A stretch of 64,000 nucleotides of DNA from a virus (taxonomy: Duplodnaviria; Caudoviricetes), in IMG/VR virus record IMGVR_UViG_3300037721_000031, positions 160,001-224,000 of that record; one strand, 5' to 3'. Shown here piece by piece: positions 2,831 to 5,004 of the stretch. The first letter of the stretch is position 1; every line of letters begins with the position of its first letter. A program made the translations under genes and the position numbers. The notes below the pieces were generated by a model. The model was not told the origin of the DNA and searched no databases. It worked only from the letters and a program-made list of their open reading frames with translations.

Positions 2831-3794
2831 CGTACCACTATAGTTTTCACTACCGAGGATGACTTTTCTCAAATGCGACTACAGTCATCTTGGCTGTGCT
2901 AGCCATTTCTTTGGAGACTTCAACGATCTTCTATTAGGAAGACCTCCATCTATATAAATCCAAATACTCTCGTTTGTGGTCTGGACTATGCCTTCATCCA
3001 TTGTTACTCGGCGGCAATCATATCGGCATTGTCACTCCATTTTACTGGGGATATTTCCAATATAGCTATCCACCCTAGACAAAGCACATGTTGTTCATTC
3101 CAACAACACCCGCTCTTTAAGCCTACACTTGGATGATCTCCATCTAGTCTCTACACCTTCAAGAATAATCTACGTACCTTCACAGGTATGTGTATATCAT
3201 TACTAATTCAGATACTAAAGATACCGAGAGTCGAACTCGGACCATTCCACAGCGGAGTCTACCGCTTGACCTATATCTCTAGTACAGTGCTGTGTTCACC
3301 TTCTGAATTAATACATTCAATACATCAATAGCCGGAGGAGCCCTACTCCATGGACGAATCATAGGTTTCGAAGCTACTATCGTCTGTTTATTGTCATACC
3401 TGCCGGCATGACTCAACACTCTACGTTCTTTTAATCGCTACTGAAAAATTACTCAAGCTTGGCTCGGCGTTGACATGGTAAACTTATTACATAAATGGAT
3501 CATCACTTTTGGATGTTTCCATTTTGTTAGGTCCAAGTCTACTTTAGTGTTCGCCGAATTTGAAGATATTCACCTAACAGGGTATAGGATTCTCACCTAG
3601 TACGCTTAGAGTTTGACCTCAATCGTTTCCTGCTATTTTACCGTCTCTCGATTGCATCGTTTCGTACATAGCTTCTTTTTGAAGGAAGCTACATATATCC
3701 CCAACGCATTTTTCGGTGGTGCTCATGTTTCTGCTGGATAGTCATGACTCGTGCTCACATAAGTATTCGCGAATCACTAATACCCATTCAGCAT
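2831..3794 (-). ncRNA. Group I intron (IB-like, ORF-less, large peripheral inserts)
   Basis: P4 UCGGCG/CGCCGA, P3 AUCUUCA/UGGAGAU, P7 GACUA/UAGUC, P8 CAUCCA/UGGAUG, P9.0 ACCAC/GUGGU, terminal G at 2831; core is clear, 5' splice site is inferred. Confidence 0.85.
3215..3282 (-). ncRNA. tRNA-like domain embedded in intron L6
   Basis: 9-bp acceptor-like helix, U8-A9, D-arm GGTC-AAGCGGTA-GACT, perfect T-arm CCGAG-TTCGACT-CTCGG, stunted anticodon arm. Confidence 0.75.
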
Positions 3795-3818
3795 AAGACG
3801 GTTATTTTACTAACTAAA

Positions 3819-4217
3819 CTAGATGGACATTATGAGTACATGTCCATCATCACCAACAATCATGTCTTCAACTTCTTCATGGTCGAAAGGAATGTCTCTG
3901 TAGCGCTCTCGAGCTTCAGCATGTTCCGCTCCACCATTTACTTTCTCTTGTTTTCGTCTCAGAGCTCTGGCTTCATAAGCATGCAAAGCTTGCTTTAAAT
4001 GCCAAATCGCATCTTTAGTTTCGTCACACGGAATCAATCCATCAAGGTAGACAGACCTATCCAAGAGTGCTCGAATGACTTCCTGAGTATTTGTTCCTTG
4101 GTATTCGACATCATGCCTCACATGCCGGCTACTTCTTTTACAGAATTTCAATTCCTGATGACCTGGTGTCCCAAGATTATCAAGATGGTAAATGTGACCT
4201 GCATCAATTATTTTCAT
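3819..4217 (-). CDS. Tad1-like (Tad1/Acb2 fold) anti-defence sponge candidate
   Basis: H.Y...KF.K...G....E...L.DR......P..E...A..H...AL......R...V.G pattern matches Tad1 as I recall it. Confidence 0.65.
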   Translation of the reverse strand: MKIIDAGHIYHLDNLGTPGHQELKFCKRSSRHVRHDVEYQGTNTQEVIRALLDRSVYLDGLIPCDETKDAIWHLKQALHAYEARALRRKQEKVNGGAEHAEARERYRDIPFDHEEVEDMIVGDDGHVLIMSI

Positions 4218-4925: not shown

Positions 4926-5004
4926 TGGTAGGCCGGGTGAGATTCGAACTCACTATCGCTGGCTTATGAGGCCAGTGCTTATACCAGGCTTATGCTTCCG
5001 GCCC
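4926..5004 (-). tRNA. tRNA(CAT), Met or Ile2
   Basis: Anticodon arm CTGGC-CTCATAA-GCCAG; acceptor GGGCCGG/CCGGCCT with C4-G69 and C5-G68 favours Ile2; atypical A8 and D-arm. Confidence 0.85.

Follow-up and report, generated by a model that had tools for sequence, protein, structure and literature searches.

A putative free-standing group I intron of the tRNA type, enlarged by structured inserts, in the tRNA island of a jumbo phage

The DNA analysed here (the window) comprises 64,000 nucleotides (nt), bases 160001–224000 of the 266.6-kb IMG/VR virus record IMGVR_UViG_3300037721_000031, which is estimated to be 98% complete and represents a jumbo phage (267 kb). A minus-strand island of tRNA genes, small open reading frames (ORFs) and HNH genes fills the first 6.8 kb of the window. 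In it, approximately 1 kb separates the stop of a 132-amino-acid (aa) ORF (3819–4217) from the start, at 2806, of a tRNA-shaped gene, and neither strand of this gap holds an ORF longer than 47 aa, in agreement with a preliminary description of this DNA that had noted the absence of a homing endonuclease. The gap is occupied by a group I intron element of 964 nt (2831–3794), the only copy of its family in the genome and the largest family member seen. Its two flanks can pair with each other as a 10-base-pair (bp) hairpin resembling an anticodon arm. All coordinates are those of the window and, unless stated otherwise, all features lie on the minus strand.

Read directly from the sequence, the core pairs are P4 (UCGGCG/CGCCGA, within UUCGGCG 3552–3558 and CGCCGAG 3463–3469), P3 (AUCUUC(A)/(U)GGAGAU, with six of six pairs between AUCUUC 3562–3567 and GGAGAU 3136–3141), P7 (GACUA 3145–3149 with UAGUC) and P8 (CAUCCA/UGGAUG, within 2995–3135). 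These four pairings had already been proposed, and all are present, far beyond chance. P3, P4, P6, P7 and P8 follow one another in canonical order, with the P3/P7 pseudoknot, and the joining segments look canonical as well: J6/7 GUAGA, the P7 5′ strand, J7/3 GAU and the P3 3′ strand form a continuous block (3136–3154) that matches the family block GUGUAGAGACUA, and J8/7 AAGGCA leads into the 3′ strand of P7 (together 2984–2994). The P9 domain (2831–2983) is closed by the stem ACCAC 2976–2980/GUGGU 2834–2838, contains the hairpin P9b with a GAAA loop (2839–2854) and ends in ACG with G2831 as the terminal guanosine (omega-G), as do family members, which end in GUGGUA(A/C/U)G.

The decisive evidence for this predicted core is comparative. 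An nhmmer profile built from 21 compact tRNA-hosted relatives gives four collinear minus-strand matches, at 3576–3453 (E = 3e-5), 3161–3128 (7e-4), 3004–2971 (7e-8) and 2858–2827 (9e-4), each of which is significant alone. Set against the family columns that are at least 90% conserved, the core shows three departures only, namely a compensated change of G·U to G-C in P4, which otherwise equals the family consensus, one position in P5 and a trimming gap. Across the family P3 occurs in about ten different compensated sequences, and in the relative L068 P7 has covaried from GACUA/UAGUC to GACCA/UGGUC. Judged by these comparisons, the group I core at 2831–3794 is real. The check suggested in the preliminary description, a match to the Rfam model Intron_gpI (RF00028), fails, at 22.8 bits (E = 0.003–0.009) and below the gathering score of 50; the alignment skips P3 and chooses the wrong P7, and a genome-wide covariance search splits the signal into two pieces of 16.6 and 15.7 bits. 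Among three compact relatives searched with the same model, one passes the gathering score (L013, 58.6 bits). Intron_gpI has no bacterial seed sequences, and 18–20 bits is a working threshold for tRNA introns (Williams 2020, bioRxiv 10.1101/2020.01.27.920355). The low score is expected because a model without bacterial seeds is weak for this lineage.

Public contigs matched to the region include many compact relatives in the run X16, which share five blocks with the window. An exact 17-mer spanning J8/7 and the 3′ strand of P7, AAGGCAUAGUCCAGACC, is common to 58 IMG/VR contigs, most of which also carry the P4′–P6, J6/7–P7 and P9 blocks, and in about 45 of the 58 the intron mode of aragorn places the intron in the anticodon loop of a phage tRNA gene. 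The commonest site is in tRNA-Leu(UAA), CUU↓...G↓AAAA (arrows mark splice sites), with Met/Ile-CAU, Lys, Arg and others also represented. CUU↓AAAA in tRNA-Leu is the classical cyanobacterial site (Williams 2020, bioRxiv 10.1101/2020.01.27.920355), and the pre-tRNA introns of Azoarcus and Synechococcus are classed as IC3 in literature that passages of PMC3984707 cite. The element is thus a genuine member of the tRNA-type (CUU↓...G↓AAAA, IC3-like) lineage. It is not IB-like, because its nearest relatives are tRNA anticodon-loop introns of this type, and the comparison with IB-type 23S rRNA introns that had been drawn before has to be given up, as all identifiable relatives lie in tRNA genes or are free-standing in phages.

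The IC3 introns of cyanobacterial and plastid tRNA-Leu(UAA), and presumably also the Azoarcus tRNA-Ile ribozyme, are built from the same core blocks, J3/4–P4, P4′–P6, J6/7–P7, J8/7–P7′ and P9 with its GAAA loop. They share with the element a P3′ strand directly after P7, the absence of an ORF, exons that pair with each other (here over 10 bp) and an insertion point, CUU↓...G↓, that separates positions 34 and 35 of a loop of the anticodon type. Unlike these introns, the element is phage-borne and lies outside any tRNA; it measures 964 rather than roughly 200–250 nt, has a three-way P2 domain and not a hairpin, carries large inserts in P5, P6, P8 and P9 and a 70-nt L1, and would leave a ligated loop of 6 or 8 nt.

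Searches beyond these relatives returned little. The intron region has no blastn match among GenBank phages (n = 50,697). The motif CGAAAAATGCGTTKGGG is found in L054 only, besides four chance matches, and a 20-mer covering the GNRA hairpin and P2a described below has two chance matches, both in coding sequence, in 185,579 prokaryote genomes. A 14-mer from the core has no match in the text of papers, and in the open-access literature searched no description was found of IC3 introns in phage tRNA clusters, of their ornate expansions or of hairpin-hosted free-standing copies.

The ends of the element stand as first proposed, with the 5′ splice site between U3795 and A3794 and omega-G at 2831: homology to the X16 relatives stops at 2831, and G2831 aligns with the terminal G of the family. 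The architecture of the 5′ end is different from the one suggested. An 8-bp complement between the 5′ flank and the intron, ACCGUCUU/GAGACGGU, had been taken for P1; it exists, but its 3′ strand (3647–3640) consists of the loop and 3′ strand of a family-conserved GNRA hairpin followed by the 3′ strand of P2a. G3647, the supposed wobble partner, is the third position of the GNRA loop and is an A in X2 (97% identical), L034, L069 and L071, as is expected inside a GNRA loop but not for the wobble base of a splice site. The same strand is also conserved where the intron sits in a tRNA and the 5′ exon has no complementarity to GAGACGGU, and a P1 formed with it would be pseudoknotted with the conserved P2.

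Eight family members form a subfamily with an extended 5′ domain: the element in the window, the tRNA-hosted L034, L069 and L071, L067 and L066, which are cut by contig ends, and the free-standing L054 and L068. In all eight, an internal guide sequence lies directly 5′ of P2 and covaries with the end of the 5′ exon, GAG pairing with CUU (window, L034, L069 and L071), GUG with CAU (L067 and L054) and GGG with CUU (L068). In the window, GAG 3724–3722, adjoining P2 and able to pair with CUU 3797–3795, behaves as the real guide. This CUU ends the 5′ exon in agreement with the family consensus, a stem followed by CUU↓, and the U3795·G3724 wobble inside CUU/GAG gives the element, with its omega-G, both splice-site marks of a group I intron. 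The 5′ splice site predicted in this way is the one that the discarded P1 had also predicted.

Between splice site and guide, L1 (3794–3725) folds as one long hairpin (minimum free energy (MFE) −22.2 kcal/mol, z −3.3). It measures 70 nt as against 9–13 nt in tRNA-hosted relatives, and L054 and one X16 relative have an L1 of 23–25 nt with a small hairpin at the same place. What had been read as an L1 of about 150 nt is this loop plus a three-way P2 domain (3571–3721), in which every helix shows compensatory changes among L034, L054, L066, L067, L068, L069 and L071 and on which MFE folds agree. The domain is closed by P2 (CACC 3718–3721/GGUG 3571–3574; CAUC/GAUG in L068), from which P2a (ACCG 3714–3717/CGGU 3640–3643; UACG/CGUA in L054) leads to the 7-bp P2a′ (3702–3708/3653–3659), which bears a distal hairpin and is found in six different compensated sequences. 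The GNRA mini-hairpin (3644–3651) reads UC-GAGA-GA here, UC-GAAA-GA in most members and CC-GAAA-GG in L054 and L071, and P2b (3629–3635/3575–3581) differs in sequence in every member.

The remaining bulk of the element lies in large ORF-free inserts, as the preliminary description had recognized, and in place of exactly these inserts the X16 relatives have 6–36 nt. The extended P5 (3470–3551), enclosed by P4, folds with z −2.35, and its segment 3482–3542 (61 nt) is reduced to 19 nt in those relatives. P6 (3155–3462) holds a structured insert of 292 nt (3163–3454; fold z −2.4) between the conserved flanks CCAAGCUU and UUGAAGGU, replaced by 29 nt in X16 relatives. The 129-nt insert of P8 is the most strongly structured (MFE −47.8 kcal/mol, z −4.9, with none of 200 shuffles as good); about 150 nt between P3′ and P8 correspond to about 30 nt in the X16 relatives, in which the 117-nt P9 insert (2855–2971) also shrinks to 6–12 nt. 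Most inserts fold better than shuffles (z −1.6 to −4.9), and the closing helix is intact around every one. Such ORF-free growth of P5, P6, P8 and P9 is a continuum in the family, the distance from J3/4 to the 3′ end being 140–563 nt in other members and 731 nt here. When each insert was compared by blastn with all relatives, no similarity was found, and the inserts are therefore lineage-specific. The only Rfam family detected in them is tRNA, at the tip of the P6 insert (3280–3216; 36 bits, gathering score 29, E = 1.5e-5). This tRNA-like module possesses acceptor, D and T arms, has approximately 11 nt where an anticodon arm would be and lacks CCA. tRNA-like or T-arm modules also occur in P5 of L071 (34.3 bits), in P6 of L068 (two T-arms), in P6 of L069 and in P5 of L008.

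The statement that the element has no host gene holds in that it interrupts none, but its flanks, which had been described as mere spacers, form an anticodon-arm-like hairpin. The upstream ORF terminates at 3819, before the intron, with three in-frame stops; no tRNA spanning the element is found by aragorn with introns allowed up to 1500 nt, and the flanks contain no D, T or acceptor arm. The 5′ strand AAAUAACCGU (3807–3798) pairs over 10 contiguous bp with ACGGUUGUUU (2827–2818), a helix matched in quality by 311 of 20,000 shuffles (p about 0.016), and leaves CUU↓ and ↓GUA (2828–2830) in the loop. In X2 the substitution U3804>C converts a U·G pair of this helix to C-G and strengthens it. Once joined, the loop would read (U)CUU↓GUAA, an anticodon-type loop (CU-UGU-AA) lengthened by one nucleotide; the intron divides it where the tRNA-hosted relatives divide theirs, between positions 34 and 35. 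Hairpins with a symmetric loop flank all three free-standing members: L054, between two ORFs of a 222-kb contig, has a 14-bp helix (p about 0.0002) with the loop ACAU↓AAAA and the guide GUG, and L068, between a terminator-like hairpin and a response-regulator-like ORF of a 133-kb contig, has a 10-bp helix (p about 0.007). Because the flanks form such a hairpin, the element can be described as an intron with a minimal ‘exon’ context. In the Anabaena pre-tRNA intron, pairing of the exons as an anticodon stem is a requirement (Zaug, McEvoy and Cech 1993, as related in a passage of PMC3984707), and the hairpins of these three independent free-standing members agree with it. Our reading is that the present intron has kept, or found, the one exon feature that it would need.

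Two other interpretations of the flanks were set aside. An intrinsic terminator is plausible for the L054 hairpin, which has a U-rich tail, and not for that of the window. A decayed tRNA 5′ half at 3761–3802, with an ancestral splice site at 3761, is unlikely, as the D-arm resemblance is weak, Rfam gives no match and the segment folds as the tip of L1.

Several relatives show further arrangements. L068 (minus strand, about 1500–600) ends in GUGGUAC-A and lacks omega-G, its P6 insert holds the two T-arm-like hairpins, and an ORF with a Shine–Dalgarno sequence begins about 30 nt downstream. The compact member in L010, L014, L023 and L031 lies outside tRNA genes, a short distance upstream of an ORF, with no flank hairpin at the guessed splice sites. 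In L008 (minus strand), a tRNA 5′ half is followed by a 560-nt family intron with the T-arm-like module in P5, after which about 12 nt and a complete intron-less tRNA-Leu stand where the matching 3′ half would be expected; this may be a recombination product.

Our preferred explanation, to which we give a probability of roughly 0.55, is that the element is a group I intron of the tRNA-type lineage, orphaned but intact and self-splicing, that has kept only a mimic of the anticodon arm. This lineage, normally found in tRNA anticodon loops, has diversified within the tRNA clusters of phages and is inclined to acquire structured extensions without ORFs. Transcription of the minus-strand tRNA island would include the element. 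In the RNA, the flanks would fold into their hairpin and stand in for the anticodon stem that tRNA-type introns need, CUU 3797–3795 would pair with GAG 3724–3722 to give P1, with the U·G wobble at the splice site, and free guanosine would cut after U3795. Omega-G 2831 would then occupy the P7 site, the two halves of the hairpin would be ligated and the 964-nt intron RNA would be released in linear or circular form. As to origin, the orphan is most likely selfish or neutral, its tRNA host having decayed to the anticodon arm or the intron having moved into an anticodon-arm-like hairpin. Catalysis in vivo and this origin are what we infer from the observed homology, helices, covariation, boundaries and flank hairpin.

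Several observations weigh against this explanation. P1 has only 3 bp and encloses the 70-nt L1; a second CUU (3761–3763) at the tip of the L1 hairpin could pair with the same guide, although we consider it less likely as a splice site; and the 8-bp pairing of the 5′ flank with 3640–3647 could trap an inactive fold. The ligated loop does not have the 7 nt of an anticodon loop, and the free-standing L068 lacks omega-G, yet keeps P7 through a compensatory change. No read or contig contains the ligated exons or a circle of this element, and the sole contig from an RNA library that falls on it (X18, 2913–3139) is internal and could be DNA. Finally, an orphan with nothing to protect should decay, yet selection seems to have acted on the core and on all inserts, and this would agree better with a domesticated function.

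Coverage of parts of the region in X16 and X18 consists of contigs from RNA libraries and cannot show transcription or splicing of the element. An 18-mer across the ligated junction, representing an intron-less allele or spliced complementary DNA, has no viral match and 31 metagenome matches, about the chance number and all in unrelated coding contexts. In X16, a run labelled as RNA-seq, the 3′ end of a relative (aligned to 2831) is joined through 23 nt to the position aligned with 3725. These 23 nt resemble the relative’s own L1, which is similar to that of L054. The joint is as expected for a full-length intron circle, a weak indication, since a tandem DNA arrangement is also possible; the DNA locus of this relative was not found in IMG/VR.

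The best-placed alternative, possible though unlikely, is a domesticated ribozyme or RNA product, in which the free-standing, hairpin-hosted versions are kept because the RNA of about 1 kb, excised or unspliced, serves the phage. Its tRNA-elbow and GNRA-docked domains could offer a decoy or a platform to host factors that bind tRNA, or it could be a structural RNA of the GOLLD or ROOL kind, which share these tRNA islands. The core and inserts look under purifying selection even though splicing is not required by any host gene, the peripheral loops of L071, L068, L069 and L008 also contain tRNA-like or T-arm modules, and L068 has lost omega-G while preserving P7 by the GACCA/UGGUC compensation; GOLLD and permuted transfer-messenger RNAs (tmRNAs) lie close by in related contigs, and the window holds the sole family copy of its genome. 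On the other side, the three free-standing members stand in unrelated gene contexts and their inserts have no detectable common sequence, and recombination within tRNA arrays could by itself carry tRNA fragments into introns. The evidence for selection comes from a small sample of variants. The near-identical relatives X2 and X3 (about 97–98% identity) keep the whole element, and none of the 13 substitutions listed falls in the core (38 further differences exist besides). Eight of these 13 are at positions unpaired in the MFE fold and all five at paired positions keep the pair (only about p 0.05), which we regard as suggestive.

The same substitutions, among those listed, speak against a relic, the next alternative and a more doubtful one, according to which the intron was recently orphaned, no longer splices, is misfolded by its inserts or by the alternative pairing of its 5′ flank and persists as transcribed spacer. 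That pairing, ACCGUCUU/GAGACGGU, is incompatible with P2a and the GNRA hairpin, L1 far exceeds the 9–13 nt of tRNA-hosted relatives, and L068 demonstrates that free-standing copies can lose omega-G. Against such decay, no conserved core position is damaged and the helix that closes each insert is preserved. The preliminary description taken as a whole, with the 8-bp P1 and its terminal U·G, the 150-nt L1, an IB-like core and cleavage that processes the polycistronic tRNA transcript, is very improbable: the strand that it needs forms the UC-GARA-GA hairpin and P2a, both of which covary (to CC-GAAA-GG and UACG/CGUA), and the processing role is unsupported. RNase P would still be needed for the tRNA 5′ end, 24 nt downstream.

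A further suggestion, which we rate as unlikely, between the domesticated and the relic alternatives, is that large phages have repeatedly detached the tRNA-type ribozyme into a minimal anticodon-arm hairpin and kept it because the released RNA of 0.6–1 kb is a working product. If this were true, the RNA, linear or circular and adorned with tRNA-elbow modules and GNRA-docked domains, might present a mimic or decoy to host factors that are directed at tRNA, or might be a stable RNA of a phage ‘RNA island’ that excises itself.

The neighbourhood of the intron adds the following. The 132-aa ORF (3819–4217), earlier called Tad1-like, matches only phrog_2428 (function unknown, E = 8e-7) and has no Pfam match, and a pattern search for IMG/VR relatives of the upstream ORF (P0001) found none. 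A scan for promoters and terminators at meaningful places gave a result not above shuffle expectation. The tRNA-shaped gene (2483–2806) encodes its CCA and has a large insert in the anticodon region. In the intron mode of aragorn it is a tRNA(UUA) with a long variable arm and a 231-nt intron bounded by U↓...G↓; in an alternative model the loop is replaced by a 257-nt insert. No group I core blocks were seen in this insert. A tRNA at 4929–5004, with the anticodon loop CUCAUAA, scores 51.4 bits in Rfam and was missed by ARAGORN. Elsewhere in the same genome, G000:C1:73147–73429 (minus strand), equivalent to L001:1501–1806, is a conventional group I intron (68–79 bits) with an IA2-like insertion between P7 and P3′, the 5′ end of which is overlapped by a 345-aa ORF with HNH_3 and I-TevI DNA-binding domains.

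Comparison with other known systems places the element apart from each of them. The classical phage introns (T4 td, nrdB and sunY, Twort, SPO1), mostly IA2 with P7.1/P7.2, are likewise phage-borne ribozymes of the self-splicing type. Unlike the element, they lie within conserved genes for proteins (PMC3984707), usually carry or adjoin a gene for a homing endonuclease and belong to a different structural subgroup. Like the element, GOLLD and ROOL are ORF-free, highly structured RNAs of about 0.5–1 kb among phage tRNA genes, but they have no group I catalytic core, and no Rfam match to either is found in the window. In the tRNA islands of three relatives’ contigs, a GOLLD RNA (175.8 bits, in the L034 tRNA cluster) and permuted tmRNAs are present (L034:2524–2979, L034:5446–5667, L054:3544–3830 and L069:12168–12417). 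The lariat-capping ribozyme GIR1 is derived from a group I intron and no longer splices a host gene; it lacks P1 and has a rearranged junction, whereas the element keeps P1, its guide sequence, omega-G and the full core. In Clostridioides difficile, an allosteric group I ribozyme in a 5′ untranslated region is reportedly controlled by cyclic di-GMP. That ribozyme interrupts no gene and is a non-coding RNA upstream of a gene, and L054 and L068 likewise lie just upstream of ORFs. It differs from the element in being coupled to a riboswitch aptamer, with splice-site choice controlling translation; Rfam detects no aptamer in the element, and the gene downstream is a tRNA-like RNA.

In textbooks, phage group I introns lie in genes for proteins, and introns of the tRNA type in the tRNAs of bacteria and plastids. 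The present locus leads to a large lineage of tRNA-type introns that inhabit the tRNA clusters of phages and have ornate ORF-free peripheral domains. In this lineage the intron appears at least three times without a host gene, keeping only a hairpin in which the exons pair. Because the Rfam model Intron_gpI misses such elements, the ‘non-coding gaps’ near tRNAs in phage genomes may often be introns. The free-standing members would provide a natural minimal substrate for the exon requirements of tRNA-type introns and, with their relatives, a natural series of peripheral expansions on one core. They also offer a test of whether an intron can become a gene product.

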